Part shown: positions 10,345-30,433 of the stretch, piece by piece | Layout: each line of letters begins with the position of its first letter | Numbering within the stretch: position 1 is the stretch's first letter | DNA from: Thermodesulfovibrionales bacterium | GTDB taxonomy: Bacteria; Nitrospirota; Thermodesulfovibrionia; Thermodesulfovibrionales; JdFR-86 | Assembly: GCA_030682405.1 (NCBI GenBank) | Contig: JAUXOF010000047.1 | Location: 18,877-82,876 of the forward strand | Direction of reading: 5' to 3' | DNA: 64,000 bases | Made by a program: the position numbers and the translations under genes | Notes under the pieces: model-generated | Databases searched by the model: none | What the model was told of the DNA's origin: nothing | The model's input: the letters and a program-made list of their open reading frames with translations, nothing else

Positions 10345-11286
10345 CTATCCATTGCCCTTAGCTGCGGCCTCTACGGTTATCTTAAGCCCCTCATCAAGAG
10401 AAAACTCCGGCCTCCAGCCTAACTCTTTTTTCGCCTTGGAATTATTCAGGCAGAACCGTATCTGCTCGCCGGGCCTGTCTTTGTGATAAACGGGCATTGC
10501 CTTCCTGCCCAACAAATCCGAGGTCTTCTTATAGAGAGTGTTCAGGGTCGTCTCAACTCCGGAGCTGATGTTAAAGACAGGGTCGGGATTGTCGCTGCGG
10601 ACGGTTAAGGCAAGGAGGTTTGCCCTGACCACATCGGCGATGAACACGTAATCCCTTGTCTTTGTGCCGTCTCCCCAGATATCGGCCTGTTGGCCGGAGG
10701 AAAGCTTCCTTATGTAGTCCGCCATTGCGCCGGTTGCCTGTCCGGGGCCGTAGACCGTCGCATATCTGAGGACCACATACGGAAGCCCGTATGTCTTAGA
10801 GAAGAACCTGAGATAGTTCTCAGTCGCCTCCTTTGATATCGCATAGGGCGTGTCGTATGAGAAAGGCTCTTTCTCCTTAAGAGGGAGGTTGGGGTTGTTG
10901 CCGTATACGAACCCTGAGGAGCTGTAGAGCACCTTCTTTACATTCAGGTCTTTGGCCTTTCCGAGTATCCGCAGTGTGCCGGCAAGGCAGTCCATGTCAA
11001 GGAGGGGGTTTTGGACGGATTTCGGCACGAACACGAAATATGCGAAATGGCAGATTATCCCGGGCCTCTCCTTTTCCATGATTATCTCGATTTCCGGGTC
11101 GGCAATATTGACCTCGTAAAATGCCGCCTCAGGGTTGATGTTTTCCCTCCGGCCGCTTGAGAGGTTATCCACGACCACGACATTGGCGCCCTCACGAACG
11201 AGCGCATCCACGGTGTGCGAGCCTATAAAGCCGGCTCCGCCTGTAACCAGAACCTTTTTGCCTTTTAAACTCATTGAACGGGCCAT
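10345..11286 (-). CDS. NAD-dependent sugar-nucleotide epimerase/dehydratase (GalE-like extended SDR)
   Basis: [29 protein letters not shown] catalytic motif. Start moved to the ATG at 11286, which follows AAGGAAAGGA and lies after the upstream stop. Confidence 0.85.
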   Translation of the reverse strand: MARSMSLKGKKVLVTGGAGFIGSHTVDALVREGANVVVVDNLSSGRRENINPEAAFYEVNIADPEIEIIMEKERPGIICHFAYFVFVPKSVQNPLLDMDCLAGTLRILGKAKDLNVKKVLYSSSGFVYGNNPNLPLKEKEPFSYDTPYAISKEATENYLRFFSKTYGLPYVVLRYATVYGPGQATGAMADYIRKLSSGQQADIWGDGTKTRDYVFIADVVRANLLALTVRSDNPDPVFNISSGVETTLNTLYKKTSDLLGRKAMPVYHKDRPGEQIRFCLNNSKAKKELGWRPEFSLDEGLKITVEAAAKGNG

Positions 11287-11305
11287 GCGATAATTCCTTT
11301 CCTTT

Positions 11306-12988
11306 CTATTTGTATATCTCAAAGGAGTTGGTCATCTGAACCCTCCCGCTTTTGAAATAATCCAGTATGCGGTTAATCCCGTAGTCTTCGGAAACATGCC
11401 TTTCCCTGAGCAAGGAGGCGGCATCGGCGTAAGCCTTGTCCTCTGCCTCGGAGCCCCTTTGCATCGAAAACCCCTCCATTTCCGGTATTATGCCGGGCTG
11501 CACAAGGGTGTGTATGAAGTATACGAATGCAGCGACCTTCGCCATGCCGGCATCAACCGTTTGGGTATTGTCCTTTCTAAAAAGGGTTGAGAGCAGGCGG
11601 AAATACTCCTCCTTGGTCTCAGGGTCAAAGGTAAACCCCAGTCCCGAATAGACCGCATCTCCTGCAAGCAGGCACTTGATTCCAAGATATGCGGCCTCAA
11701 GCCCTATAGTGCCGCGGGCCGTAACCACCCCGTCTGCGGAGTCAAGCACGGACTTGGTGCTCACGTCATCCGGAAGAAAGACGATATGCCCGGGCAGGCT
11801 GTCTCCGTATATCTCCCTTACGATTGTATCCAGCCGCACCTTGCTGTGATAGAAGCTGTGCCTGTTTAGGGGGTGTTCCTTCAGTATCCAGTTTACATCC
11901 TTTATGCCGCCCATGCGTTTAATCGTCTCGCGGGACCAGTCGTAATGGTCATTAAACAGGTACCATCTCTGGTCATGCGGCGCATCCGGGAAGACATGGG
12001 CCATCATGTAGACAAACGGCTTGTTTATGTCTATTTTCATGAGCCCGGCAAGCCCTTCCCTGGTATAAAACCGTTTTCCGGTCTTAAATGCGATAGTGAC
12101 GTTTGGGTCTCTCGTTACGTTTCCCGACATCCTCGCCTCAAAGTACTCCTCTATGACCCTGCGCGCCGTATCGGGATTGTTCTTATAAACGTCGTCGAAC
12201 ATCTCCTTTATCACCTTCCTGTAATAAACAGGCTCATCCTCAGGCTTGAACTTTCTGATGGTAAAGTTACCGGGCGTCTTTCCGTCGCAGCCCGCGAAGT
12301 ACACTGTCAATCCGGCCTCTCTTGCCGCCCGTATCATCGTGCCGTATACGTTGTATACGGCGGCATGCCCGACGATTATATGTTTCACGCTATGTTTTTT
12401 TATGAGTTTCTCGTGGATGTCATAGAAGAACACGGCCTCAACAATCTTCCTGTATAGATAGGGGTCTTTCCTTGAGACTGTGCCGTTTCCAGTGTCCCTA
12501 AGATATGTATCGTATATCAGGTCTCCTATAACCGCGCCTTTATATTTCAATGCTAAAAGATTTTCAGCTCTTGTTGAGAGGAATATAAAGACGGATTTAA
12601 CAAGGCTCATCACGAATGCGAGGGGGAATCTTCGAACACTGAGCATCTCTATGCGGTCGGCGCAGTAGGAGCGCATCACATCAAGCGCCCCTTTCCCTGC
12701 ATATGGCCTTGTGACCCAGACTGTTTTCAGGCCGGTGAGCTTCTTAAGCGCGGCAGATGTAACGCCGATTTCCATCAGCCCGCCGGGATAGGTGTTGAGG
12801 CCGTCAACCAGCACGGAATGCCCTTTTCCCTCGCACCTTCCGCCTAAAAACTCCTGCCATACAGCCCTGTTTGCCTCGCAGAAGGAGGCTGTGCCCCCTC
12901 CTGATAGGGATGTGTCCCCGGCTGCTTCCGCCCCCTTGCTCGCAGGGGGTCGCACCCCATTCGCAGGGGGTCGCACCCCCCCTACCAA
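11306..12988 (-). CDS. Putative capsule-polysaccharide biosynthesis transferase (KpsS/KpsC Capsule_synth-like GT-B); start uncertain
   Basis: C-terminal half ILKEHPLNRH...VVTARGTIGLEAAYLGIKCL resembles the other two such proteins in the window. The N-terminal 20 codons are a 21-bp tandem duplication starting at a TTG. Confidence 0.5.
   Translation of the reverse strand: MVGGVRPPANGVRPPASKGAEAAGDTSLSGGGTASFCEANRAVWQEFLGGRCEGKGHSVLVDGLNTYPGGLMEIGVTSAALKKLTGLKTVWVTRPYAGKGALDVMRSYCADRIEMLSVRRFPLAFVMSLVKSVFIFLSTRAENLLALKYKGAVIGDLIYDTYLRDTGNGTVSRKDPYLYRKIVEAVFFYDIHEKLIKKHSVKHIIVGHAAVYNVYGTMIRAAREAGLTVYFAGCDGKTPGNFTIRKFKPEDEPVYYRKVIKEMFDDVYKNNPDTARRVIEEYFEARMSGNVTRDPNVTIAFKTGKRFYTREGLAGLMKIDINKPFVYMMAHVFPDAPHDQRWYLFNDHYDWSRETIKRMGGIKDVNWILKEHPLNRHSFYHSKVRLDTIVREIYGDSLPGHIVFLPDDVSTKSVLDSADGVVTARGTIGLEAAYLGIKCLLAGDAVYSGLGFTFDPETKEEYFRLLSTLFRKDNTQTVDAGMAKVAAFVYFIHTLVQPGIIPEMEGFSMQRGSEAEDKAYADAASLLRERHVSEDYGINRILDYFKSGRVQMTNSFEIYK
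12940..12981. repeat. 21-bp tandem duplication, each copy containing a GGGGT-CGC-ACCCC mini-hairpin
   Basis: TCGCAGGGGGTCGCACCCCAT / TCGCAGGGGGTCGCACCCCCC lie directly after the SDR stop codon (12982-12984). Confidence 0.9.
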
Positions 12989-13803
12989 CAGGTTCTTCCT
13001 CCGTCAACTATGAGGTTTGCCCCTGTCATGTACGAAGAGGCATCCGAGACCAAAAACAGCACTGCACCTTTGTACTCGTCCCTCCGGGCCATCCTCCCCA
13101 TGGGTATCCTTGAGGATATTCTTTTGAGGAACTCATCGGGCTGGCCTGTGTACACGCCTCCGGGGGAGAGCGCATTGCATCGGATGTTTTTATCGGCCCA
13201 GTATGTGGCTATGTATTTTGTAAGCCCAAGAAGGCCGTGTTTTATCACGGAATAGGTTACAGGCTTTACCGGCTGCTTGTCCGGGGGAAGCCCCTCTTTT
13301 ACATAAAGCCTCTGGTCAGGGGCGATGACACCGAGGTCCGAGGATATGTTCAGTATCACCCCCCCGCCCCTTTTTGCCATCTCAGAGCCTATGACCTGAG
13401 AGCACAAAAACGCGCCTGTAAGCCCTACTGAAATTTCCATGTCCCAGTTCTTGATGGGGAAGTTTTCAAACCTGCTCCACGACCGGTCGTCGCCGGCCTT
13501 GACCTTAGGGTCTATTGCCGCATTATTGATTAATATATCCACGCGTCCGAATTTCCTCAAAACCGTGCGGAGGAGTTTTTGCACGCTCCCCCTGTCCGTA
13601 ATATCCGCGCCTATGCCGAGGGCGTCCGCCTTGTATTTCCCGGATACGGCCTTTGCCGCCTTTTTGGCAGCCACTTCTTTTATATCGGCAAGCACAGGGG
13701 TTCCGCCCGCCTCTGCCACGGCCTCGGCATGCATCAGGCCCAAGAGTCCCGCCCCTCCGGTGATGACGGCAACTTTTGATTTCAGGCTGAAAGTCCCTTT
13801 CAT
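12982..13803 (-). CDS. Short-chain dehydrogenase/reductase, paralog of the PtmA-like SDR
   Basis: KVAVITGGAGLLG, YSVIKHG, SDASSYMTGANLIVDGGRT. Start set to the ATG at 13803, just after the upstream stop at 13805. Confidence 0.85.
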   Translation of the reverse strand: MKGTFSLKSKVAVITGGAGLLGLMHAEAVAEAGGTPVLADIKEVAAKKAAKAVSGKYKADALGIGADITDRGSVQKLLRTVLRKFGRVDILINNAAIDPKVKAGDDRSWSRFENFPIKNWDMEISVGLTGAFLCSQVIGSEMAKRGGGVILNISSDLGVIAPDQRLYVKEGLPPDKQPVKPVTYSVIKHGLLGLTKYIATYWADKNIRCNALSPGGVYTGQPDEFLKRISSRIPMGRMARRDEYKGAVLFLVSDASSYMTGANLIVDGGRTCW

Positions 13804-13804
13804 T

Positions 13805-14581
13805 TCAGAAACCCCTTGTCTGTCCGCCGTCAACAACAAGGCAGGAGCCTGTAATGAATGACGCCCTCTCCGAGGAAAGGAATAGCACGGCATCCGCCAC
13901 CTCTTCCGGCCTGCCGAGCCTCTTCATAGGGACCTCCGAATTTATATATTGCTTAACGCCTTCGGCGTCTTCGCCGAGCTTTCTCTCCCAGACCCCTCCG
14001 GGCGCAAGGATATTTCCGGGCGCCACGACATTAACCCTTATGTTTTCCGGGGCAAGAAGCCTTGATAGGTTTTTGCTTGCTGCTATCAGCCCTGCCTTTG
14101 CCGCTGAATACGGAATCGGCGCGGGCAGCGTCTCGATGCCTGCTATAGAGGAAATAAAGACTATGGAGCCTCCGCCCCTTTTAATCATGAGGGGGACGGC
14201 ATATTTGACTACAAGGCTTGCGCCGATTAAGTTAATGTCCAGCATGTTCATCCAGTCGTCCTTGTCCGGCTCAAGCCCGGACTTGAGCCTTCCGCTCCCG
14301 ATGTTTGCAACGAGGATGTCAATGCCTCCCCACTTTTGCTCAATCGCCTTCAGGCAGCCGGCTATCCCTTCGGCGTCCGTAAGGTCGCAGACGGCGGACA
14401 TCAGGGACCCTTGGCCCAGGCGGGATGCGAACTCCCCGTATGCCTTCTTGAGCGCATTATCGTCTCTACCTGTAAGGGCAACCTTAGCCCCTGCCTCAAG
14501 AAAACTCCCTGCTATGACCCGGCCTATGCCCCTGCTTGAGCCTGTCACCAGAACAACCTTATCCTTAAGTCCAAGTTCCAT
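13805..14581 (-). CDS. Short-chain dehydrogenase/reductase (FabG-like)
   Basis: KVVLVTGSSRGIG, YSAAKAG, SERASFITGSCLVVDGG. Confidence 0.85.
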   Translation of the reverse strand: MELGLKDKVVLVTGSSRGIGRVIAGSFLEAGAKVALTGRDDNALKKAYGEFASRLGQGSLMSAVCDLTDAEGIAGCLKAIEQKWGGIDILVANIGSGRLKSGLEPDKDDWMNMLDINLIGASLVVKYAVPLMIKRGGGSIVFISSIAGIETLPAPIPYSAAKAGLIAASKNLSRLLAPENIRVNVVAPGNILAPGGVWERKLGEDAEGVKQYINSEVPMKRLGRPEEVADAVLFLSSERASFITGSCLVVDGGQTRGF

Positions 14582-14592
14582 ACAGAGCGCTC

Positions 14593-15423
14593 CTATAGTC
14601 CGTATTCTTTTATATAGTTTCTGACCATGCCCAGATATTTCTTTGCAACGCCTGCATCATCCGCATCGCGGGCGGTCTGAAGAATAAAAGGCCCTTTATA
14701 GGAAATCCCCTTAAGCGCCTTAAAGACCGCGGGGAAATCCGCATTGCCCTCCCCAAGCGGAACTGTGCCGCCGTGAAGAATGCGGTCTTTTATGTGTATG
14801 TTTGCGATGAAAGGGCCGAGGGTCTTTATCTCAAACCCGGGCTCATACCCCATGGAGGCGCTGTTGCCAATATCGAAGTTCACGGCCATAAGGGGATGGT
14901 TGAACCTTTCTATAAGCTCCCTGAACTCAAGCGGCGGAAGCGAGGTCTCAAGCGAAATAGCCACGCCATGCTTTTCCGCCGCAGGCAGGGCAGAGGAGAC
15001 GTATTTTATAAGTTCCGCTTTGTCCTCTTCTGTCTTTATGGCCGACTGGTCAACGCATGGTATCTCTATCAGCCTGACCCCTGCCTGAGAGGACATGCTT
15101 ATCAGGCTGATGAGCACATCCGCACTCTCTTTTTTTGCTTCTTCAGGCACCCTGAAAAAAGGGTGTTCCATGAAATAATCAGCGCATATGGAAGAAACAG
15201 GAATGCCTGTTTTATCTATAAGCCCTCTGACCTTCTTTATTCCACCGGATGTATAGATGGGGTTTTCGTCCGACCTGTCCGCCTCGAAGATAAACTCTAT
15301 GGAGTCAAACCCGCATGCCTTTGCCGTCTCAAACTCCTCTTCCCACCTCTCCCATGGGAAGGCCTGAATCCTGTCTCCTATCCGGGGGACGAGCCGCCCC
15401 TGCATGACCCCGACGGGATTCAT
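14593..15423 (-). CDS. Xylose-isomerase-like TIM barrel, UlaE/SgbU-type ketose-phosphate 3-epimerase homolog
   Basis: GVMQGRLVP.., CGFDSIEFIF, NFDIGNSASMGY, NIHIKDR...VPLGEGNADFPAVFKALKGISYKGPFILQ parallel the UlaE layout. ATG at 15423 gives a 1-nt overlap with the upstream stop. Confidence 0.7.
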   Translation of the reverse strand: MNPVGVMQGRLVPRIGDRIQAFPWERWEEEFETAKACGFDSIEFIFEADRSDENPIYTSGGIKKVRGLIDKTGIPVSSICADYFMEHPFFRVPEEAKKESADVLISLISMSSQAGVRLIEIPCVDQSAIKTEEDKAELIKYVSSALPAAEKHGVAISLETSLPPLEFRELIERFNHPLMAVNFDIGNSASMGYEPGFEIKTLGPFIANIHIKDRILHGGTVPLGEGNADFPAVFKALKGISYKGPFILQTARDADDAGVAKKYLGMVRNYIKEYGL

Positions 15424-16463
15424 TATCCGAACATCTCCCTCTCTATGTACTCGCAAAGCATGTGGCCCACAAGTATGTGCCCTTCCTGTATCCTCGGCGT
15501 GCTTTTGGAAGGTATGCATATGCCGACGTCCGCGAGCTTCACAAGTTCGGTGTCCTTTCTTTGCCCTGTGAGCACGACGGTTTTCATGCCGATTTTCTTT
15601 GCGGCCTCCACTGCCTTCACCACGTTTTTAGATGTCCCGCTTGTGGAGATTCCGATAAGGACGTCGCCCTTTTTGCCCTCGGCCTCTACCTGCCTTGCGA
15701 ATACCAAGTCAAAGCCGTAGTCATTGCCTATGGCAGTCAAGGAGGAGGTGTTACATGAAAGGGACTCCGCCGCGAGGGCCTTTCTTTCCATTAGAAATCT
15801 GCTTACGAGTTCCGTGGCCAGATGCTGGGCGTCCGAAGCGCTTCCGCCGTTTCCGCAGAAAAGGAGTTTTCCGCCCTTCCTGTAACAGTCAAGGAGAAGC
15901 TCGCCTGCCTTTTTTATGTCTTCCATTGTTTCGGTCTTTAGCGCCTTTATTGCCTCTATGTGCCCGTCTATGCAGCCGGTCCAGAAGGCGTCTTTAGGGT
16001 CTTTGTCCTGCGCCTTTATATGCATAAGGACTTCTTTAATCACCCCTTCTCCGCGCCTTGCGCTGAGGACGATGTTTGCGCAGGCCTTCGCCTCAGGGCC
16101 TGAGTCAGAGGGCGCAAAGCTCCACCTGAGATGCTCAAGGAGTGCCGCATCTTTTTTGGAGTCGCCCACGAATGCTATTTTAGATTCATCCAGAGAGTTC
16201 TTCTTTACGAGGGACTTAAAGCCCTTGAGCTTGTCCTTTGAGCCGGAGATGAAAAAGTCAGGGGAAAACCTCTGCCTTATGAACTCCGTAAAGGGCGTCT
16301 CCTCGGCGGTTATAAAGCCGGTCTTTATGCCCATGCGCTTAAGCTCAAAATATGCGTCAATGTCGTCAAAGGCTATCACCTTTGACTCTTCCCCGGACTT
16401 GTCTATGGTAACCTTGCCGTCCGTCAGTACGCCGTCTACATCAAATAAAATTATCTCAATCAT
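15423..16463 (-). CDS. Fusion protein: KdsC-type HAD sugar-acid-phosphate phosphatase (N-terminal) + GmhA/DiaA-type SIS sugar-phosphate isomerase (C-terminal)
   Basis: N-terminal LFDVDGVLTDGKV...AFVGDSKKD...GGEGVIKEV (KdsC pattern). C-terminal LFCGNGGSASDAQHLATEL...GISTSGTSKNV (SIS). ATG at 16463 is preceded by GAGGAG. Confidence 0.8.
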   Translation of the reverse strand: MIEIILFDVDGVLTDGKVTIDKSGEESKVIAFDDIDAYFELKRMGIKTGFITAEETPFTEFIRQRFSPDFFISGSKDKLKGFKSLVKKNSLDESKIAFVGDSKKDAALLEHLRWSFAPSDSGPEAKACANIVLSARRGEGVIKEVLMHIKAQDKDPKDAFWTGCIDGHIEAIKALKTETMEDIKKAGELLLDCYRKGGKLLFCGNGGSASDAQHLATELVSRFLMERKALAAESLSCNTSSLTAIGNDYGFDLVFARQVEAEGKKGDVLIGISTSGTSKNVVKAVEAAKKIGMKTVVLTGQRKDTELVKLADVGICIPSKSTPRIQEGHILVGHMLCEYIEREMFG

Positions 16464-16506
16464 GGTGCGCTCCTCTTTATCGTTTTCAGGGCTTAGAGCC
16501 CCCATT

Positions 16507-17361
16507 TTAGCGAATCGTCCAGCCGCCGTCAACAATAATGCTCTGTCCGGTAATGTAGTCCGAGGAGTCCGCGGATAGGAAGACGAGAGCGCCCTTTAAA
16601 TCCTCCGGCCTTCCGAACCTTCCCAGCACGGTTTTGTCCCTGAGCCTCTTAAGAAAGCCCTCGTCTTTGGGGCTGTTGTAAGAGCTTCCCTCCAGATTGG
16701 GGAATGCGCCCGGCAGGATGGAGTTGCAGCGTATCCCGTGTTCTCCGTAAAAAGATGCAATGTACCTTGTAAGGGCCGCGATTCCCGCCTTTGATACGCT
16801 GTAGGCCGGAGGGTTGAACATCTCGGTCCCTTTGTAAATCCCGGGGTCCGGCGAGACAAGGGCGTACATAGAGCTTATGTTTATTATCGAGCCGCTCTTT
16901 TGCCCCTTCATCTTCTCGCCTATGACCTGTATCGCAAGCGCGCTCCAGTAGACCCCTGACTCAAGGCTCTTCATCCACTGGGACTTGGACATCTTTTCCG
17001 CTTTGCCTGAGGGGTCGTTGAAACCGGTATCTTTGCTGAAGTCAAACGCATTGTTTACGAGTATATCAATGGACTTGTTCTTGCGTGCCGCATCTATAAG
17101 TGCCTTCCTGTAATCGTTCTCACTGTAGAAATCCGCCTTGTATTGCGTTACCTTCGCCTTTTTGTGAGTTGCCTTTAACGATTTGGCGAGTTTTTCAAGT
17201 TTCCCTGCGCTTCTTCCAAAAAGTATAACGTCTGCCCCTGCGGAAAGGAGGCACTCTGAAAACGCAGCGCCGAAATATCCGGTTGCGCCGGTTACCACGG
17301 CTGTCTTGCCTTTGAGGGAAAAAAGAGACCCTATTGAGCTGAATCTTGGTCTATCCGGCAT
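16507..17361 (-). CDS. Short-chain dehydrogenase/reductase, PtmA-like paralog
   Basis: KTAVVTGATGYFG, YSVSKAG, SADSSDYITGQSIIVDGGWT. Confidence 0.85.
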   Translation of the reverse strand: MPDRPRFSSIGSLFSLKGKTAVVTGATGYFGAAFSECLLSAGADVILFGRSAGKLEKLAKSLKATHKKAKVTQYKADFYSENDYRKALIDAARKNKSIDILVNNAFDFSKDTGFNDPSGKAEKMSKSQWMKSLESGVYWSALAIQVIGEKMKGQKSGSIINISSMYALVSPDPGIYKGTEMFNPPAYSVSKAGIAALTRYIASFYGEHGIRCNSILPGAFPNLEGSSYNSPKDEGFLKRLRDKTVLGRFGRPEDLKGALVFLSADSSDYITGQSIIVDGGWTIR

Positions 17362-18061
17362 GGGAGACGCCCGCCCTTTGCCGCTTAAGTATCCATTCGC
17401 ACACCTCTATATCCTCCGGGGAATCTATCTGGAAGGAGCTTAGAAAGTCCATCTCATAGACTTCAATCTTGCCGCCCAGCCGGTTGTTGAGTTCCACAAG
17501 GACATTCGGCTTGAATACGTAAATCGAGCCGTTTTCCATGAACTGCTCGGGAAAATCCTGCTCCCTCCACCGGTTTTTGTAGTCGTAGTTTACGGACTCC
17601 ACCTTATCGCCTTTCCTGCGCCAGATGAACTTGTTCCACCTGCATACCGAGAAAAGGGAATCTGCACCGGATTCGATGAAGAGCCTGACGGCGTTATCTA
17701 TGTCGTCAGGCTCTCTTACAGGTGAGGTGCACTGAAGAAATACGATAATGTCGGGCTGATACCCCTCTTGTTTCTGAAGGAGGCCAAGGACGTGCTGTAT
17801 TGCGGACTCGGACGTAGCCGTGGCAACGGCAAGCTCAGGCGGGCGCATTATGACCTCTGCGCCGTATTGCCTCGATATTTCCGCTATCTCCCCGTCGTCC
17901 GTTGAGACGAGCACGCGGCTTACCGAGCGGGAGCTTTTTGCGTGCTCTATGGAATGGGCTATGAGGGGCTTGCCTGACAGCGGCAGGAGGTTCTTCCTCG
18001 GTATGCGCTGGGAGCCTCCCCGCGCCGGGATAACGGCAATGACATTGGCCTGATGCGCCAT
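17351..18061 (-). CDS. Acylneuraminate (CMP-ulosonic acid) cytidylyltransferase family protein
   Basis: VIAVIPARGGSQRIPRKNLLPLSGKPLI signature; 236 aa. Confidence 0.88.
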   Translation of the reverse strand: MAHQANVIAVIPARGGSQRIPRKNLLPLSGKPLIAHSIEHAKSSRSVSRVLVSTDDGEIAEISRQYGAEVIMRPPELAVATATSESAIQHVLGLLQKQEGYQPDIIVFLQCTSPVREPDDIDNAVRLFIESGADSLFSVCRWNKFIWRRKGDKVESVNYDYKNRWREQDFPEQFMENGSIYVFKPNVLVELNNRLGGKIEVYEMDFLSSFQIDSPEDIEVCEWILKRQRAGVSHAG

Positions 18062-18933
18062 CAGTAAATTCGTCTTAGCTTTGAAATAATCGGCTTTTCG
18101 CTGTCATAAATCTTTATAACGCCGTTTCCGAGCGCTGCCTCTATGGTTCGAATGTCCCTTACGAGCCTCTTTAGGCCCTGAGGCTCTACAGAGGCGGCAT
18201 GGTCGCTGCCCCACATGCTCCTGTCAAGGGTGATGTGCCGCTCAATAACGCATGCGCCGAGAACCGCTGCCGCAACAGAAGTGGAAAGTCCCACCTCGTG
18301 CCCTGAATAACCGATGGGGATGCCGAAGCGCTCACTGAGGGTCTGAATGCCCCTGAGGTTAAGCTCCTCCGGCTTGGACGGATATGTGCTTGTGCAGTGA
18401 AGTATTATCAGGTCTCGTTTGCCTAACACCCCGACCGCATGCTCGATGAGCTTTAAGTCGCTCATGCCTGTGGAGAGTATTATAGGTTTTCCGTACTTCC
18501 TGTGGTGCTTAAGAAGGTTGTCGTCCGTAAGGGATGCGGAGGCTATCTTGTAAAACGGCAGGTTGAACTTCTCCATGAAGTCCGCCGCACCCTCGTCCCA
18601 GCACGATGCAGTCCATGCGATGCCCTTTTGCCTGCAGTATTTGTCTATCTCTGAATATTGCTTCTGACCGAACTCAAGGCCGCGCTTTAAGTCCCCGTTT
18701 GTCAGGCCGAAGGGGTTTTCTCTGGGTTTTGCCAGTTCCTCGGCAGAGTAGACGACCTCTACGGTCCTCTTCTGGAATTTGACCGCATCGCATCCGCAGT
18801 CTATGGCAACATCAATAAGCTGCTTTGCTATGTCTACGGAACCGTTGTGGTTTATGCCTATTTCGGCAATGATGTATGCAGGCTGCCCTTCCCCTACGGT
18901 TTTATCGCCTAATTTTACGGTCTTGAACTTCAT
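18061..18933 (-). CDS. NeuB-family PEP-condensing ulosonic acid synthase, short form lacking the C-terminal SAF domain
   Basis: YIIAEIGINHNGS..AVKFQKRT, KIASASLTD, STGMS. At 290 aa it ends where PseI and LegI continue into SAF. Confidence 0.85.
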   Translation of the reverse strand: MKFKTVKLGDKTVGEGQPAYIIAEIGINHNGSVDIAKQLIDVAIDCGCDAVKFQKRTVEVVYSAEELAKPRENPFGLTNGDLKRGLEFGQKQYSEIDKYCRQKGIAWTASCWDEGAADFMEKFNLPFYKIASASLTDDNLLKHHRKYGKPIILSTGMSDLKLIEHAVGVLGKRDLIILHCTSTYPSKPEELNLRGIQTLSERFGIPIGYSGHEVGLSTSVAAAVLGACVIERHITLDRSMWGSDHAASVEPQGLKRLVRDIRTIEAALGNGVIKIYDSEKPIISKLRRIY

Positions 18934-19128: not shown

Positions 19129-21268
<2,140 letters not shown>

Positions 21269-21272
<4 letters not shown>

Positions 21273-22633
21273 AGGTGTTGCTTCTTAACCCCCCTATCAG
21301 GGAATGGGCCAAGCCCAATGTCTTTCCGCTGGGCCTTGCATACCTTGCCTCTGTGCTCAAGGAGGGGGGCCACAAGGTTGAAGTCCTCGATATAAACGCC
21401 TTCAGATGGACGCGCGAGACTGTCGAGAGAAAAATCAAAGAGGCCGAGTTCGACCTGCTCGGCATCGGCGCCATTGTTACGGTTTACGGATACGTCAAGT
21501 GGCTCGTTGGGATTTCCAAAAAGCATCACCCGGATAGAAAGGTTGTCGTGGGCGGGAGCGTGGGCACTTCAATTCCGCATATCGTCCTTGAGAAGACGGA
21601 GACAGATATTGTCTGCATAGGCGAAGGAGAAAGGACCATTGTCGACATGGTAAAGGCATTGGAGAGAGGTGAAGACCTCTCCGGAGTCAACGGCATATGG
21701 TTCAGGGGGCAAGACGGCAGGATAATAAAGACCGGGGCGAGAGCCCCGATAGCGGACCTCGATGCAATCCCCCTGCCTGCATGGGATATCTTCCCCATGG
21801 ACATATACCTCAAAAACCCGGTCGGCGCGCCCAACAGGAACAAGTGGATAGACGGCGGCTCTTCGGAAAACGCAGCCCCGTCCATGAACCTCAGCGCCAC
21901 GAGGGGGTGCCCGTACAAGTGCATCTACTGCTACCACGACTTCATGGGCCAGAAGTACAGGCACAGGTCCCCGGGGAACATCATCCGCGAGATGAGGGCC
22001 CTCTACGACGTGTACGGGGTCAGGTATTTCCATTTCATAGACGACGAGTTCTGCCTCAAAAAGAGTTTCGTCTTTGACTTCTCGAAGGCCGTGAGGGAGG
22101 AGTTCGGAGGAGACGTGACATGGGGGTGCTCGGGCAGGGTCAACCTGATGACCGAGGAGATGATTGCCGCGATGGCAGAGGCCGGATGCGTCCTCATAGG
22201 CTACGGCATTGAGTCCGGAAGCCAGAGGATGCTCGACGTGATGAAAAAGGGGGTCACTGTGGAGCAGGCCAAAAATGCCGTCCGCATGACGATGAAGCGC
22301 CTGGGCTGGGCGGACTGCTCATTCATGATAGGCACTCCGGGAGAGAACATAGAGACCGTCCGGGAGACTATAGATTTCTGCAAGGAGATGGACCTTACCC
22401 CTGAGGTAATTTTCTTTGCCACGCCTTATCCCGGCACCGAGCTTTACGATATGGCCCTCGCTCTGGGGAAGATAAAGGACGAGGAGCAATACGTGCTCGG
22501 CCTCGGCGAGCAGGGCGAAAAGGTAAGGGTCAACTTCACCGAGCTCTCTGACGAAGAGCTTATGCGCACTCAGGAGGACATGATACGGGAGCTTGGCGCA
22601 TGGAACAAGCTCAGGCACCCGGAGAGCAGATAG
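21269..22633 (+). CDS. B12-binding-domain radical SAM enzyme (class B)
   Basis: N-terminal Rossmann PLGLAYLASVLKEGGHKVEVLD, cluster motif ATRGCPYKCIYCYH. ATGA overlap with pseC. Confidence 0.85.
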
Positions 22634-22634
22634 A

Positions 22635-23375
22635 ATGAACATACTATGCGTAATACCGGCGAGGGGGGGCAGCAAGAGGACCCCTGGCAAAAACATAAAG
22701 CCCCTCATGGGGAAGCCACTGATATCGTACACCATAGAGAAGGCCCTTGAAAGCAGGCTCGTAACGAGGGTCGTCGTCTCCACCGACAGCCCTGACATCG
22801 CCCGTGTGGCCCGGGACTTTGGGGCCGAGGTGGTCGAGAGGCCAGCGAATATCTCCGAGGACACCTCTGCAATAGACGACTCCCTCCGCCACGCGGTCAG
22901 GCATCTTGAGGCCGGAGAAGGCTTCAGGCCGGACGTGGTCGTGCTCCTTCAGGCGAACGTGCCGGTCAGGAAAGAAGGCGAGATAGACGAGGTCATAAGG
23001 GCGCTGCTTGAAAACCCCGAGGCGGAATCCGTAGCCACCGTCTACGAGGTAGACCAGCGGATAGAGTGGATGAAAAGGGTTGACGCAAGCGGAAAGGTCA
23101 CTCCCTTCATGGGGCAGACCGCCTCCTACAGGAAGCAGGACCTGCCGGAGCTTTACCTCATTGACGGGGCGATAGAGGCCGTCAGGACCGATACCCTCAT
23201 GAGGACAGAGGGCAATAGGATGGCCCACGCATATTTCGGCGAGCGCCTCTACGCCTTCATCCACGAAAAGAAATACGCTATAGAGGTGGACGTAGCGGAA
23301 GACCTTGAGATGGCGGAGTATTTCCTCGGCAGGGAGCATGTCCCCCTGCGGAGAGGCAAGAAGACCTCTGCCTGA
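22635..23375 (+). CDS. pseF: Pseudaminic acid cytidylyltransferase
   Basis: ILCVIPARGGSKRTPGKNIKPLMGKPLI. The ATG is 1 nt after the radical SAM stop. Confidence 0.88.
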   Translation: MNILCVIPARGGSKRTPGKNIKPLMGKPLISYTIEKALESRLVTRVVVSTDSPDIARVARDFGAEVVERPANISEDTSAIDDSLRHAVRHLEAGEGFRPDVVVLLQANVPVRKEGEIDEVIRALLENPEAESVATVYEVDQRIEWMKRVDASGKVTPFMGQTASYRKQDLPELYLIDGAIEAVRTDTLMRTEGNRMAHAYFGERLYAFIHEKKYAIEVDVAEDLEMAEYFLGREHVPLRRGKKTSA

Positions 23376-23403
23376 TAAACATGGGCATCCGGCAGAAGGG
23401 GTT

Positions 23404-24966
23404 ATGAGCGCAGAGAAGGTTCTAATCAGGGTGGACGCCTCAGCCGCCATAGGCATGGGACACGTGATGAGGTGCATAGCCTTTGCTCAGGGCATAAGCG
23501 GGATGGGCTTTGAGCCGGTCTTTGCGACCCGCACGGAAAACAACAGTCTACTTGAGAAGATAAAAAAAGAGGGGTTCAGGGCTTACCCCCTGAAAAACGG
23601 GGGGGGAGATAGGGGGAACCCCGACGAGCTTAAGGGGATAATCGGCAAAGAGAAGCCTTTGTGGGTCGTGCTTGACGGGTATCATTTCGGGACTGATTAT
23701 CAGAAGGCGATTAAGGATATGGGGCATCGTCTTCTGGTTATAGACGACATGGCGCACCTTACTCGCTATCACGCGGACATAATCCTCAACCAGAACTATG
23801 GGGCAGAAAGGCTTATTTATAAGGCGTTGCCTGAGACGCGGTTTCTCTTCGGCCCGAAATACGCCCTCTTAAGAAAAGAGTTCCTGCATTATGGTGATTT
23901 TAAAAGAGAAATCCCCCAAAAGGCCGAAAAGCTCCTTGTTACGATGGGAGGGGCCGACGCTGACAACTGCACAGGGAAAGTTCTCCGGTCATTAAAACTC
24001 ATAGACCTCCCGCTTCATGTGAAAGTCGTTGTAGGGGCAAGCAACCCCCACTACGAATCCCTAAAGTCCGCCGCCCCGGACAGCCGTCACAGGATTGAGT
24101 TTGTAAGAAACGTAGAGGATATGTCCCCTCTAATGGCATGGGCGGACATTGCAGTCTCGGCAGGCGGGACCACCACTTGGGAGCTTGCCTTCATGGGGCT
24201 TCCGACAGCACTCTGCATAATTGCAGACAATCAAGAGCCTGCGGTAAGAGCGCTTGAGAAGGACGGTTTTTTCGCCTCAGCCGGGCGGATCGGGGACAAA
24301 ACCGAAAAAGAGCTTTCATCGATAATTCAGGGGATAATAGACAATAGCGCGGCGACCCTTAGCGAAAAAGGCAAAAGGCTTGTCGACGGATACGGGGCAT
24401 TGAGAGCCGGGATAGAACTCATCGGGGGCGGGGAAGTCGCCCTAAGGAGGGACTTCGATTTCGGGCCGGTAAGGTTCGTGAACTTTATAAACCTCACACC
24501 CGAAGAAAAAGAGGCGGTACTCGGCTGGCGGAACTCAGATGAGATAAGAAAATGGATGTTTACAAGCCATATAATCTCAAAAAAAGAGCATCTGCGTTTT
24601 ATAGAGGGTCTCAGGGAAGATGGCAGGAATTTTTACTGGATGGCAAAGGTGGGGGGCAAGGCATCAGGGGTCGGCAGCTTTCAGAAGGTTGATGCCGAGA
24701 CAAGAAGCGGGCATCTCGGCATATATTCCGTGGAAAGGGGCGCAGGCAGGACAATTATGCAGCGCCTTTTATGCCTCTGGTTTGATATTCTGAAGATGCG
24801 TGTATTAAAATCCGAACTCATAGAGGGCAATGAACGGGCTCACAATTTTTATGAGGATTTCCAGTTTAAAGCCGAGGGCGTTGCACGCTCAATCGAAGAA
24901 AACGGCGTAACCAAAAAAGTTATAACAATGACAAAAACTAAAGAGAGCATTTCCAATGCGAATTAG
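23404..24966 (+). CDS. pseG: Fusion: UDP-2,4-diacetamido-2,4,6-trideoxy-beta-L-altropyranose hydrolase (PseG) + GNAT N-acetyltransferase (PseH-like)
   Basis: N-terminal IRVDASAAIGMGHVMRCIAFA and GGTTTWELAFMGLP (PseG, GT28-like). The C-terminal ~170 aa is GNAT-like (WRNSDEIRKWM..., NERAHNFYEDFQF). Confidence 0.8.
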   Translation: MSAEKVLIRVDASAAIGMGHVMRCIAFAQGISGMGFEPVFATRTENNSLLEKIKKEGFRAYPLKNGGGDRGNPDELKGIIGKEKPLWVVLDGYHFGTDYQKAIKDMGHRLLVIDDMAHLTRYHADIILNQNYGAERLIYKALPETRFLFGPKYALLRKEFLHYGDFKREIPQKAEKLLVTMGGADADNCTGKVLRSLKLIDLPLHVKVVVGASNPHYESLKSAAPDSRHRIEFVRNVEDMSPLMAWADIAVSAGGTTTWELAFMGLPTALCIIADNQEPAVRALEKDGFFASAGRIGDKTEKELSSIIQGIIDNSAATLSEKGKRLVDGYGALRAGIELIGGGEVALRRDFDFGPVRFVNFINLTPEEKEAVLGWRNSDEIRKWMFTSHIISKKEHLRFIEGLREDGRNFYWMAKVGGKASGVGSFQKVDAETRSGHLGIYSVERGAGRTIMQRLLCLWFDILKMRVLKSELIEGNERAHNFYEDFQFKAEGVARSIEENGVTKKVITMTKTKESISNAN

Positions 24967-25993
24967 CGGAAGAAGAATCGGCCCCGGGTATCCGGTATTC
25001 GTCATAGCCGAGATGTCCGGCAACCACAATCAGGACTTTGACGAGGCGGTTAGAATCATACAAGCGGCAAAGGGAGCCGGGGCTGATGCGATAAAGCTTC
25101 AGACATACACCGCAGACACCCTCACGATAGATTCTGACAGCGAATATTTCAGGATTAAGGGCACTCTATGGGAGGGACAAACCCTCTACAGCCTCTATAA
25201 AAAAGCATACACGCCGTGGGAGTGGCACCCGAAACTAAAAGAGGCGGCACAGGAAGCGGGGATAATACTTTTCTCCACCCCGTTTGACAAAACCGCAGTA
25301 GATTATCTCGAAAAGATGGAAGTCCCGGCCTATAAGATAGCCTCTTTCGAGCTTGTGGACATCCCGCTAATAGAATACGCCGCCTCAAAGGGCAAGCCCA
25401 TGATAATGTCAACCGGCATGGCCACCCTCGATGAGATAAAAGAGGCGGTTGATGCGGCAAGGGGAGCGGGAGCAAAAGACATTGCCCTTCTTAAATGCAC
25501 AAGCGCATACCCCGCGCCTCCGGAGGAGATGAACCTGAGGACCATAGCCGACCTATCTGAAAGGTTCGGAGTCGTATCAGGGCTTTCCGACCACTCAATG
25601 GGCATAGCCGTGCCTGCTGCCTCTGTTGCCTTGGGCGCATCCATAATAGAGAAGCACCTCACTTTATCCCGCGCAAAGGGCGGCCCTGATTCGGCTTTCT
25701 CTCTTGAGCCTTCCGAGTTTGCGGCTATGGTTGAAACCGTCAGGGTTGCAGAGAAGGCCGTCGGCGCGGTGCATTACGGGCTTACAGAGAAAGAGGAGAA
25801 AAGCAAGGTATTCAGGAGGTCCCTTTTTGTGGTAAAGGACGTGAAAGCAGGCGATATCTTTACGGAGGATAATGTGCGCTCTATAAGGCCCGGACACGGG
25901 CTTAAACCCAAGCACATAAAGGATGTTTTGGGGAAAAAGGCATCTAAAGACATTAAAAAAGGCACCCCCCTTGACCAGTCTATGCTCCGGTGA
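24956..25993 (+). CDS. pseI: Pseudaminic acid synthase
   Basis: VIAEMSGNHNQD..AIKLQTYTADTLT, YKIASFELVD, STGMATL, C-terminal SAF VKDVKAGDIFTEDNVRSIRPG. Confidence 0.9.
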   Translation: MRISGRRIGPGYPVFVIAEMSGNHNQDFDEAVRIIQAAKGAGADAIKLQTYTADTLTIDSDSEYFRIKGTLWEGQTLYSLYKKAYTPWEWHPKLKEAAQEAGIILFSTPFDKTAVDYLEKMEVPAYKIASFELVDIPLIEYAASKGKPMIMSTGMATLDEIKEAVDAARGAGAKDIALLKCTSAYPAPPEEMNLRTIADLSERFGVVSGLSDHSMGIAVPAASVALGASIIEKHLTLSRAKGGPDSAFSLEPSEFAAMVETVRVAEKAVGAVHYGLTEKEEKSKVFRRSLFVVKDVKAGDIFTEDNVRSIRPGHGLKPKHIKDVLGKKASKDIKKGTPLDQSMLR

Positions 25994-26045
25994 CAAACCC
26001 CCCATCGTTTGATTAATCGCCGCGGATTCGGTTATCATATTGTTT

Positions 26046-27482: not shown

Positions 27483-27489
27483 ACCGCTT

Positions 27490-29007: not shown

Positions 29008-29015
29008 AATAATTT

Positions 29016-30401: not shown

Positions 30402-30433
30402 CCGCCGGCCCGCGAGATGTGGGAGGTAAAAAC

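Follow-up and report, generated by a model that had tools for sequence, protein, structure and literature searches.

The fusion gene and its operon

The window, a 64,000-nucleotide stretch of the Thermodesulfovibrionales contig JAUXOF010000047.1, contains an operon on the minus strand in which a gene for a two-domain phosphatase-isomerase lies downstream of a short NeuB-family synthase. Overlapping start and stop codons run from the NeuB gene through the putative transferase gene. The features are given below in the direction of transcription.

18061..18933, minus strand: SAF-less NeuB-family PEP-condensing synthase, 290 aa, the first gene of the operon (Pfam NeuB, 3e-82; SAF domain absent)
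17351..18061, minus strand: CTP_transf_3 cytidylyltransferase of the CMP-ulosonate synthetase type (Pfam, 2e-28; NCBIfam PseF, 136 bits, below cutoff)
16507..17361, minus strand: SDR 'A', 284 aa, specific to the cassette version of the window (adh_short_C2, 1e-38; 34 % identical to SDR C)
16470..16475, minus strand: Shine-Dalgarno sequence GAGGAG, read from the sequence
15423..16463, minus strand: fusion gene, 346 aa, KdsC/KDN9PP-like HAD phosphatase plus GmhA-type SIS isomerase (ORF, Pfam/NCBIfam, PDB matches, homologues)
16005..16463, minus strand: HAD (C0, KdsC-like) phosphatase domain, residues 1-153 (PDB match, conserved residues)
15426..16001, minus strand: GmhA-type SIS isomerase domain, residues 155-346 (PDB matches, invariant residues)
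14593..15423, minus strand: xylose-isomerase-like TIM barrel (AP_endonuc_2; Pfam, 1.7e-30), weakly similar to the L-ribulose-5-P 3-epimerase UlaE
13805..14581, minus strand: SDR 'B', 258 aa (adh_short_C2, 2e-59)
12982..13803, minus strand: SDR 'C', 273 aa, the best conserved of the accessory enzymes in the cassette (best NCBIfam match NF006619/PRK09186, 174.8 bits, below cutoff)
11306..12988, minus strand: putative ulosonate transferase with an uncertain start codon (weak Capsule_synth/KpsC-KpsS-like match, PF05159, 4e-07)
10345..11322, minus strand: NAD-dependent epimerase/dehydratase (Pfam Epimerase, 7e-53), which overlaps the upstream gene and is the last overlapping gene on this strand; its membership of the pathway is uncertain

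The fusion ORF extends from an ATG at 16463 to a stop codon at 15423-15425, encodes 346 aa and contains zero internal stops. The Shine-Dalgarno sequence is located 6 nt 5´ of this ATG and provides a strong ribosome-binding site. A TTG start, which would extend the ORF to 16535, was rejected because it overlaps the upstream SDR gene and the N-termini of homologues match the ATG. At the other end, the stop codon overlaps the ATG of the TIM-barrel gene (TAATG).

All of the motifs quoted in the sequence-only reading are present. The N-terminal half contains FDVDGVLTDG (residues 7-16), VGDSKKD (99-105) and RGEGVIKEV (137-145), and the C-terminal half contains GNGGSASDAQHLATEL (204-219) and GISTSGTSKNV (271-281); the first Gly of the quoted GGEG is an Arg in the fusion (RGEG). 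The domain assignments are far above chance in both Pfam and NCBIfam. Pfam detects SIS_2 (9e-30) together with HAD families, including a Hydrolase_3 match. In NCBIfam, residues 178-346 match two GmhA models (2.7e-60 and 4.7e-59), and residues 2-149 match the KdsC family (1.2e-24) and KDN-9-P phosphatase (1.8e-22), while the fusion scores below the cutoff of every curated family. The claim that a single polypeptide joins a HAD phosphatase to an SIS isomerase is borne out by one unbroken 346-aa ORF in which both domains are detected. The identical protein in NCBI is named 'SIS domain-containing protein [Thermodesulfovibrionales bacterium]'.

No spacer is present between the two halves. The HAD domain ends at about residue 153 and is followed by helices (156-195) that correspond to the usual N-terminal helices of GmhA. 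In the monomer AlphaFold model (pLDDT 87.5, pTM 0.58), the junction is formed by continuous helices, and the inter-domain orientation is of low confidence. The parent enzymes, GmhA and KdsC-type phosphatases, are both tetramers.

Distribution and gene context of the fusion

At least 120 full-length fusion clusters at the 90 % identity level, with 42-100 % identity, were observed in several phyla, and one of these clusters was seen on 52 contig blocks. At 50 % identity there are about 38 representatives. The sequences stem from independent assemblies and sources and have the same architecture and the same junction. The sequence-only reading had named a frameshift or an unrecognised stop codon between two separate genes as a possible artefact. 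Because the same architecture and junction recur in at least 120 clusters from independent assemblies of several phyla, and the helices at the junction are continuous in the model, the probability of such a merger is negligible.

The architecture is common in metagenomes, under generic automatic names alone; the JGI family name is 'D-sedoheptulose 7-phosphate isomerase'. No publication describing a HAD-SIS fusion was found in the literature on NeuB/nonulosonic acids with GmhA/KdsC. The caveat that this architecture might already be common and functionally assigned therefore holds by half: it is common, but it is named generically. In a full-length-fusion profile search of genome contigs, in which the search patterns lay in the SIS half, the matches listed were mostly standalone GmhA, with 4 fusions among them.

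A neighbour-joining tree of SIS halves placed 92 of 132 fusion SIS domains in one pure clade, with no single clean clade for all, and it favours neither a single nor a multiple origin of the fusion. Both domain orders were found, HAD-SIS and SIS-HAD, and the reverse-order fusions are better evidence than the tree for independent joining events.

The fusion loci span Nitrospirota, Firmicutes, Synergistota-like, Polyangiaceae and 'Proteobacteria' MAGs. A SAF-less NeuB of 259-290 aa adjoins the fusion in 10/10 distinct loci examined. CTP_transf_3 is present in 8/10 of these loci, the xylose-isomerase-like TIM barrel in 7/10, SDR C orthologues (56-64 % identity) in 7/10 and SDR B orthologues (39-52 % identity) in 6/10. 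Aminotransferases occur in the cassette versions of other lineages, in which they hold the slot that SDR A fills in the window, and the position of the putative transferase is taken by an LIC12162-family (PF27859) protein in loci L005 and L089. In gut Lachnospiraceae, syntrophs, anammox relatives and Nitrospirota, the cassette is part of loci for surface glycans and flagellin glycosylation, and its product is therefore likely a determinant on the cell surface that matters for phage and host recognition. Since the fusion always lies beside a short sialic-acid-type synthase in the examined loci, it probably helps to make an acidic surface sugar.

The two halves were also observed as separate genes. 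Loci L091, L093 and L094 encode a standalone HAD (53-58 % identity) beside the short NeuB, the CTP-transferase and SDR C, with no SIS, and L092 encodes a standalone SIS (60 %) beside the short NeuB, with no HAD on the contig. Neither a HAD nor an SIS gene lies near the close short NeuB (74 % identity) of L089. A HAD-half profile search of metagenome contigs returned mainly ordinary KdsC genes and added only L093 and L094 to the cassette loci.

The HAD half

The C0 HAD core of the fusion is complete, with the DxD nucleophile, the motif II Thr/Ser, the motif III Lys and the motif IV GDxxxD. In the fusion alignment, the catalytic residues D8, D10, K78, D101 and D105 are invariant and position 52 is Thr or Ser. 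The nearest solved relative is the KDN-9-P phosphatase of Bacteroides thetaiotaomicron (3e81, 66 bits), and the KdsC structures rank behind it. The identity to BT1713 is 30 %, measured with a copy that is 99 % identical to BT1713.

Glu56 and Lys67 are reportedly the specificity markers of the BT1713 KDN-9-P phosphatase, and Arg64 is said to be essential for its sugar binding. These position numbers were transferred to the fusion from the ungapped alignment with 3e81, and the KdsC comparison set consists of 77 environmental sequences from the HAD-half profile search of metagenome contigs. At the Glu56 position, 166/168 fusion HAD halves have Glu, whereas KdsC has Arg in 75/77. The Lys67 position is Arg or Lys in 157/168 fusion HAD halves and Gln, Glu or Asp in KdsC. 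Both markers are present in 4/4 standalone cassette HADs. The Arg64 position is hydrophobic (V/F/I/L) in all fusions, while it is Arg in BT1713 and in 77/77 KdsCs. Positions 56 and 64 of BT1713 presumably correspond to the sugar-binding Arg78 and Arg86 of E. coli KdsC; both arginines are thus absent from the fusions, replaced by Glu (166/168) and by V/F/I/L. Query residue R65, which is basic and one helical turn past the Arg64 position, may substitute for Arg64. Because the Arg64 equivalent is hydrophobic in all fusions, the substrate of the HAD half is perhaps no classical ulosonate phosphate.

With TIGR01670 / PRK09484 as the KdsC test models, the HAD half remains below the cutoffs (87 vs 106.95 bits for TIGR01670; 61.7 vs 208 for NF007019), and it scores 80.2 vs 180 bits on NF058599, the model of the BT1713-type KDN-9-P phosphatase.

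The SIS half

The SIS half is approximately 49-60 % identical to solved GmhAs, which are 43-57 % identical among themselves; it matches the C. jejuni enzyme (1tk9) with 175 bits and the N. gonorrhoeae enzyme (5i01) with 166 bits. Foldseek comparison with the solved GmhAs yields target-normalised TM scores of 0.85-0.93 and reveals an SIS_2 fold with the GmhA N-terminal helices. Across 132 fusion SIS halves, little or no variation occurs at H214, E218, Q326 and H334 or in the Ser/Thr phosphate loop S273-T274-S275-G276-x-S278. In N. gonorrhoeae GmhA, the Zn ligands and catalytic residues are H61, E65, H183 and Q175 of the neighbouring subunit (PMC5387315). Tested with TIGR00441 / PRK13936 as the GmhA models, the SIS half falls below both cutoffs (198.9 vs 209.45 bits for TIGR00441; 203.5 vs 276 for NF010546). 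A DiaA-like non-enzymatic role was rejected because the SIS half retains the whole GmhA catalytic set and scores 203 bits with the GmhA models vs 135 bits with DiaA.

Of the residues conserved in at least 90 % of housekeeping GmhAs, the fusion SIS lacks only the GG loop (304-305). This loop is present in 72/76 standalone GmhAs and is absent from the fusions and from the NeuB-linked standalone SIS of L092, which also shares a one-residue insertion with the fusion SIS. Given the loss of the housekeeping GG loop from this NeuB-linked subtype, the chain length of its substrate could differ.

The resemblance to GmhA at conserved residues outside the GG loop would also suit a bifunctional heptose enzyme of the GmhA/GmhB type, in which an isomerase is combined with a heptose-1,7-bisphosphate phosphatase and is a mere neighbour of the NeuB pathway. 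A true fusion of this kind exists in P0191, where a genuine GmhB-type HAD (Hydrolase_like, PNK3P) is joined to GmhA, and the JGI family name points in the same direction. However, the HAD half here is of the KdsC/KDN9PP type (Hydrolase_3) rather than that of P0191. No heptose kinase, GmhB or heptose nucleotidyltransferase was found in the cassette, either in the operon of the window or in the examined loci, and in L003 the cassette is adjoined by a full and distinct set of GDP-heptose genes that includes a GmhA and a HAD of its own. Together with the invariant linkage to the short NeuB, these features render a GmhA/GmhB-type enzyme improbable.

The sequence-only reading had further proposed a GlmS-like amination in which the SIS half might partner the neighbouring PtmA-like SDR. 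Such a reaction would act on fructose-6-P, as has been suggested for PtmF/PtmA of the legionaminic acid pathway of Campylobacter. The 'PtmA-like' label has a weak basis in that NF006619/PRK09186, the PtmA ('flagellin modification protein A') family, is the best or second-best match of SDR C and SDR A, with scores below the cutoff, and aminotransferases do occur in other cassette versions. Several points argue against the amination itself. PtmF, compared by description only, is tabulated as a 326-aa oxidoreductase and WeiH homologue, not as an SIS protein, whereas the fusion contains only HAD and SIS domains. Pfam and NCBIfam detect no aminotransferase or glutaminase in the operon of the window, the SIS half carries the full GmhA metal and catalytic set and not GlmS-type features, and the fused phosphatase would be left unexplained. 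We therefore regard this role as highly improbable.

The short NeuB and the proposed pathway

The 290-aa NeuB-family synthase named in the sequence-only reading was confirmed (Pfam NeuB, 3e-82) and is devoid of a SAF domain. Homologues with 72-82 % identity are found across many phyla. A conserved PRExP-(F/W)GxT...GLEF loop follows the KFQ strand and resembles that of BT1714-type KDN-9-P synthase; PseI-type enzymes do not have this loop. Most bacterial NeuB-family enzymes (NeuB, PseI, LegI) take unphosphorylated sugars. This usage has been contrasted with the KDN-9-P synthase type, of which the BT1714-type enzyme uses Man-6-P (PMC6200933). SAF-less NeuB proteins account for approximately 30 % of the NulO-synthase sequences in UniProt, mainly from environmental bacteria, with no product assigned (PMC8208679).

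It is established that the two domains form one protein, that each has intact catalytic residues and that the gene is linked to the others of the cassette. On this basis, we consider it somewhat better than an even chance that the fusion is bifunctional and specifically serves the SAF-less NeuB encoded two genes upstream, within a phosphorylated pathway in the style of Kdo, KDN and animal sialic acids. The order of steps and the substrates that we infer are as follows. The C-terminal GmhA-type SIS domain would turn a ketose phosphate into a manno-configured aldose phosphate. Its condensation with PEP by the short NeuB would form a phosphorylated 3-deoxy-2-ulosonic acid, from which the N-terminal KDN-9-P-phosphatase-like HAD domain would strip the terminal phosphate, and the CTP_transf_3 enzyme would then convert the free acid to its CMP derivative. 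The TIM-barrel/SDR set, with aminotransferases in other lineages, may tailor the acid, and the KpsC/S-like transferase may place the sugar on a surface glycan.

The earlier proposal that an isomerase and a phosphatase bracket the NeuB-like condensation fits the evidence best, owing to the invariant adjacency of the SAF-less NeuB, the KDN-9-P-phosphatase-type residues of the HAD half and the KDN-9-P-synthase-like loop of the short NeuB. This order is further supported by loci in which a NeuB of the same type has a HAD or an SIS beside it as a gene of its own. Several observations argue against it. The HAD half has lost the Arg64 equivalent and the NeuB-linked SIS subtype has lost the GG loop, either of which may indicate other substrates, and the scores lie below every curated cutoff. 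No HAD or SIS lies near NeuB in L089, and L092 has no HAD on the contig. In addition, a SAF domain is present in KDN-9-P synthases of the characterised type, and bacterial NeuBs mostly use free sugars.

This last property would be accommodated if the two halves catalysed consecutive steps, with the SIS domain making an aldose phosphate (e.g. D-glycero-D-manno-heptose-7-P), the HAD domain dephosphorylating it at once and NeuB condensing the free aldose with PEP. Fused enzymes usually join consecutive steps of a pathway, and the lost Arg64 equivalent is compatible with a substrate without the ulosonate carboxylate. However, the HAD half is closest to KDN-9-P phosphatase and retains its two marker residues, the short NeuB carries the KDN-9-P-synthase-like loop, and standalone HADs adjoin NeuB without any isomerase gene. 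Consecutive action is therefore the less probable arrangement, although it deserves more weight than the heptose or amination roles.

For the bracketing pathway, sedoheptulose-7-P appears to be the most likely ketose, at roughly even probability, and would lead to a ten-carbon homologue of Kdn. Fructose-6-P, which would be converted to Man-6-P and hence to Kdn, is the main alternative and is rated clearly lower. Tentatively, the product of the cassette may represent a new sugar class, a ten-carbon 3-deoxy-2-ulosonic acid that corresponds to Kdn plus one carbon. In that case, the SIS half would make D-glycero-D-manno-heptose-7-P from sedoheptulose-7-P, the SAF-less NeuB would add PEP, and the fused HAD would remove the 10-phosphate. 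CMP activation of the acid and its tailoring by the TIM-barrel and SDR (and aminotransferase) enzymes would follow. Nothing relevant on ten-carbon (dec-2-)ulosonic acids was found in the literature.

The fusion provides a Rosetta-stone link for the SAF-less NeuB clade, indicating that many SAF-less synthases may use a phosphorylated, nucleotide-sugar-independent route whose starting point is a ketose phosphate of central metabolism. Such a route would yield either Kdn-type acids, as the second pathway to them in bacteria, or, if the substrate is sedoheptulose-7-P, a new ten-carbon acid; the latter would place a large share of the clade outside nine-carbon nonulosonic acid synthesis.

Comparison with known systems

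The Kdo pathway (KdsD, KdsA, KdsC, KdsB) follows the same four-step logic of ketose-phosphate isomerisation, PEP condensation, dephosphorylation and CMP activation. KdsC and the HAD half are both members of the C0 subfamily, and KdsB and the cytidylyltransferase fall into one Pfam family. In contrast, KdsD comprises SIS and CBS domains rather than a GmhA-type SIS_2 domain, and KdsA is of the KdsA/DAHP-synthase type rather than the NeuB type. The HAD half also has Glu at the KdsC Arg78 equivalent and no Arg86 equivalent, and steps one and three are fused only in the cassette. GmhA, the sedoheptulose-7-P isomerase of the heptose pathways, agrees in fold, Zn ligands, catalytic Glu/His and phosphate loop with the SIS half, which differs in being fused to a KdsC-like phosphatase within a NeuB cassette, in the absence of the GG loop and in the one-residue insertion.

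The KDN pathway of Bacteroides thetaiotaomicron (BT1714, BT1713 and the CMP-KDN synthetase) likewise combines a NeuB-family synthase, a C0 HAD phosphatase and a CTP_transf_3 enzyme. Its synthase acts on an aldose phosphate, as is proposed for the short NeuB; the two share 37 % identity and the loop after the KFQ strand. BT1713 is closest to the fusion HAD and has the Glu56 and basic-67 markers in common with it. The Bacteroides locus encodes a standalone phosphatase (164 aa), a SAF-containing synthase (346 aa) and no isomerase, whereas the cassette has the phosphatase-isomerase fusion, a synthase without SAF, a lost Arg64 and an added TIM-barrel/SDR set.

A preprint on undescribed CMP-activated NulOs of the Kuenenia S-layer was considered and set aside, as nothing ties those NulOs to the fusion gene. 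The NulO synthase of Leptospira interrogans is divergent and has a C-terminal 'endonuclease-like' domain, and a phosphorylated substrate has been proposed for it (Ricaldi et al. 2012, PMC3438082). The resemblance to the cassette is that a divergent NeuB-family synthase is physically coupled to an extra domain; compared by description, this domain probably corresponds to the AP_endonuc_2 TIM barrel encoded 3´ of the fusion. The Leptospira TIM barrel forms one protein with NeuB and was read as the phosphatase by the authors (PMC3438082), whereas in the cassette it is a separate gene and a bona fide HAD phosphatase is present.

The fusion gene and its distribution

The gene at window 15423-16463 on the minus strand is an open reading frame of 346 codons without interruption. 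NCBIfam models place residues 2-149 in the KdsC family (1.2e-24) and in the KDN-9-P phosphatase model (1.8e-22), and residues 178-346 in GmhA models (2.7e-60 and 4.7e-59); in Pfam, SIS_2 covers residues 170-300 (9e-30) and HAD families are also matched. The single HAD-SIS polypeptide proposed in the sequence-only reading is thus borne out, and its quoted motifs are present, with RGEG where GGEG had been written. GAGGAG lies 6 nt ahead of the ATG, and the protein begun at this codon (MIEIILFDVDG) starts in register with all its homologues; a start at the TTG further upstream would run into the SDR gene before it. No linker separates the two halves: the HAD core extends to about residue 153, and helices 156-195 are the usual N-terminal helices of GmhA. 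No solved structure with both halves was found among the structure matches.

An identical protein has been deposited from a Thermodesulfovibrionales MAG. Clustering at 90 % identity yielded at least 120 homologue clusters, the best 120 of which are all full-length two-domain proteins (346-375 aa, 42-100 % identity) from Thermodesulfovibrionales, Syntrophomonadaceae, Anaerovoracaceae, Lachnospiraceae, Synergistaceae and Syntrophorhabdus MAGs. An exhaustive search gave about 38 distinct full-length fusions among 50 %-identity representatives. The fusion is real and widespread; the same two-domain form in so many full-length clusters from several taxa disposes of the frameshift or missed stop codon considered earlier, and the chance of an assembly artefact is negligible. 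In four homologues (P0153, P0178, P0185 and P0242) the order is reversed and the SIS domain precedes the KdsC-like HAD; one of these is 514 aa long, with an additional N-terminal region of about 130 residues. P0228 is a standalone HAD with 57 % identity. The homologues are named only 'SIS domain-containing protein', 'Phosphoheptose isomerase' or 'D-sedoheptulose 7-phosphate isomerase', and no description of a HAD-SIS fusion was found in the literature on NeuB or nonulosonic acids with GmhA or KdsC. Of the earlier caveat that the architecture might be common and already assigned, the first part therefore holds and the second does not.

Genomic context

The fusion is part of an operon of closely packed genes on the minus strand.

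Genes of the window operon around the fusion, in operon order
18933-18061, minus: SAF-less NeuB (first gene of the operon)
18061-17351, minus: CTP_transf_3
17361-16507, minus: SDR A, directly before the fusion
15423-14593, minus: xylose-isomerase-like TIM barrel, whose ATG overlaps the fusion stop as TAATG
downstream of the TIM barrel, minus: SDR B, then SDR C
after SDR C, minus: 560-aa protein, weakly KpsC/S-like
after the 560-aa protein, minus: epimerase/dehydratase

Ten distinct fusion loci were compared (the window, L001, L003, L005, L007, L009-L012 and L090). In all ten the fusion adjoins a SAF-less NeuB 259-290 aa long; CTP_transf_3 occurs in eight, the TIM barrel and SDR C in seven each (SDR C with a striking 56-64 % identity), and SDR B in six. 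Beyond the window, most cassettes also have methyltransferases and an aminotransferase, which is either of class IV or of class III with a glyoxalase-fold protein; in their place the window has a third SDR. In an Acetatifactor MAG (L009:5402-12819), a flagellin gene and a GT2 gene immediately precede the short NeuB and the fusion, and a 587-aa TPP-dependent enzyme follows; the cytidylyltransferase, TIM barrel and SDRs are missing. In this variant the 2-keto acid may undergo decarboxylation in place of CMP activation. Given this reduced locus and the constant adjacency, the NeuB-fusion pair is the invariant core.

The short NeuB is 72-82 % identical across Nitrospirota, Peptococcaceae/Firmicutes, Deltaproteobacteria, Scalinduaceae (anammox Planctomycetota) and one archaeon (proteins P0292-P0411; loci L089, L091 and L092), compared with 42-72 % for the partner fusion, a possible sign of strong constraint or of recent horizontal transfer. 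A Scalinduaceae contig pairs it with a standalone KdsC-like HAD (58 % to the fusion HAD half) and no SIS, an archaeal contig with a standalone SIS (60 %) and no HAD, and one contig with neither. In two marine contigs the HAD again stands alone, accompanied by NeuB, CTP-transferase or SDR C. Each half thus associates with NeuB independently, an argument for a role of both in the NeuB reaction and against either being a passenger.

Directly upstream of the Lachnospiraceae cassette lies a complete GDP-heptose-type set (L003:2274-5886; transaldolase/FSA, GHMP kinase, nucleotidyltransferase-HAD fusion and standalone GmhA), so that one glycan locus holds two GmhA-type genes. B12-binding radical SAM enzymes, often with a SPASM-type radical SAM, recur beside SAF-less NeuB genes in unrelated lineages and may C-methylate or otherwise tailor the same sugars.

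B12-binding radical SAM genes near SAF-less NeuB
window 21269-22633
L003:16012-17065
L089:12589-15558
L091:7248-10431

Divergent from the window cassette is a canonical pseudaminic-acid-type cluster (19141-31375, plus strand), so that two distinct pathways to ulosonic acids are encoded here.

Genes of the plus-strand cluster
PseB-like Polysacc_synt_2 dehydratase, DegT aminotransferase, B12-binding radical SAM, second CTP_transf_3
24956-25993, plus: full-length NeuB with SAF domain
553-aa GT28/PseG-like protein, second Capsule_synth-like protein, flippase, methyltransferase

The HAD half

The closest solved relative of the HAD half is the B. thetaiotaomicron KDN-9-P phosphatase BT1713, at 66 bits; no KdsC structure scores above 52 bits. 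The catalytic centre of the half (D8, D10, T/S52, K78, D101 and D105) is invariant. Lu et al. reportedly distinguished, in 2009, KDN-9-P phosphatases from those of Kdo-8-P by the markers Glu56 and Lys67, with Arg64 as a sugar-binding residue common to both. In an ungapped alignment to BT1713 of 168 fusion-family HADs and 77 ordinary KdsC genes, the Glu56 position is Glu in 166 of the former and Arg in 75 of the latter, and the Lys67 position is Arg/Lys in 157 of the fusion family and Gln/Glu/Asp in KdsC. The Arg64 position is Arg in BT1713 and all 77 KdsC, and hydrophobic in the fusion family. The half thus lacks both arginines of KdsC, lacks Arg64 of the KDN-9-P phosphatase, and scores below the curated cutoff of either family. 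With Glu56/Lys67-type residues kept and Arg64 lost, it is a distinct third subtype of the subfamily, nearer the KDN-9-P enzyme than KdsC but belonging to neither family.

The SIS half

The SIS half is 49-60 % identical to solved GmhAs, which are mutually 43-57 % identical (PMC5387315). The zinc ligands and catalytic residues of N. gonorrhoeae GmhA (H61, E65, H183 and Q175'; PMC5387315) correspond to H214, E218, H334 and Q326, all invariant, and the Ser/Thr phosphate loop is intact. Between 76 standalone GmhAs and 132 fusion SIS halves, a GG pair (query 304-305, nt 15549-15554) comprises the only positions conserved at 90 % or more in GmhA that are lost outright, a handful of others being merely relaxed; 72 of the 76 housekeeping GmhAs keep it. 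V220 and E233 are typical of fusion SIS halves, and in SIS domains linked to NeuB, whether fused or not, one residue is inserted at the lost GG loop. Because the archaeal NeuB-linked standalone SIS (L092:4887-5504) shares this signature, including the GG loss, and the GDP-heptose-operon GmhA (L003:5317-5886) retains GG, a NeuB-associated SIS subtype, fused or not, is apparent. Its preferred substrate chain length may have changed with the GG loss.

The half departs from GmhA in curated cutoff, genomic context and GG loop, and a role of the fusion in heptose-nucleotide synthesis is very improbable. Still more so is the PtmF/GlmS-like amination raised earlier for the SIS half, since the tabulated PtmF is an oxidoreductase of 326 aa resembling WeiH and not a SIS protein.

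The partner synthase and the proposed reaction order

The window short NeuB is 37 % identical to the BT1714-type KDN-9-P synthase and 36 % to the window's own PseI; a solved structure, 6ncs, is of a 290-aa short NeuB. All SAF-less NeuBs carry PRE(N/S)P-(F/W)G-x-T-x-x-x-x-K-x-GLEF directly after the KFQ strand. BT1714-type enzymes have a parallel, NPNSFG-x-TYGEHRA-x-LEL, without counterpart in PseI-type enzymes. A passage of PMC6200933 gives Man-6-P as the BT1714 substrate, and in the human enzyme phosphate recognition is credited to a loop in this region (PMC8208679). We infer that the SAF-less NeuB loop would be the same loop.

The main rival holds that isomerase and phosphatase act consecutively and supply NeuB with a free aldose, which is unlikely. 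The best-supported reading, and a moderately probable one, remains that first suggested from the sequence, with the isomerase before and the phosphatase after NeuB condensation; both halves are linked to NeuB and their catalytic residues are intact. An aldose phosphate of manno configuration would come from the SIS domain, the short NeuB would add PEP to it and the HAD domain would remove the terminal phosphate; the cytidylyltransferase would then activate the acid, and the TIM-barrel and SDR enzymes (with the aminotransferase) would tailor it.

Man-6-P is already made by almost every cell, and a dedicated isomerase for it would be superfluous. For this reason, and because the GmhA residue set is complete, sedoheptulose-7-P is tentatively favoured over fructose-6-P as the substrate; the product would then be a ten-carbon Kdn homologue, a possible but rather doubtful outcome. 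No literature was found on such a sugar class. Identifying the product of the fusion cassette would assign one to much of the SAF-less NeuB clade.

Comparison with known systems

A Leptospira NulO synthase is fused to an 'endonuclease-like' domain that Ricaldi et al. called a phosphatase (L. interrogans YP_002104 / NP_711794; the adjacent YP_002105 is absent from their table; PMC3438082). This C-terminal domain probably corresponds to the AP_endonuc_2 TIM barrel found in the present cassette, and the phosphatase label may be wrong; in that case the real phosphatase is to be looked for among genes of KdsC type. The working logic of the cassette is that of the routes to Kdo, KDN and animal sialic acids. 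A 99 %-identical BT1713 copy and a 76 % relative each adjoin a 346-aa NeuB with a SAF domain, and no isomerase gene was found in these two loci. The characterised KDN system therefore has a SAF-containing synthase and no isomerase gene, whereas in the window cassette the NeuB is SAF-less and the isomerase is fused to the phosphatase.
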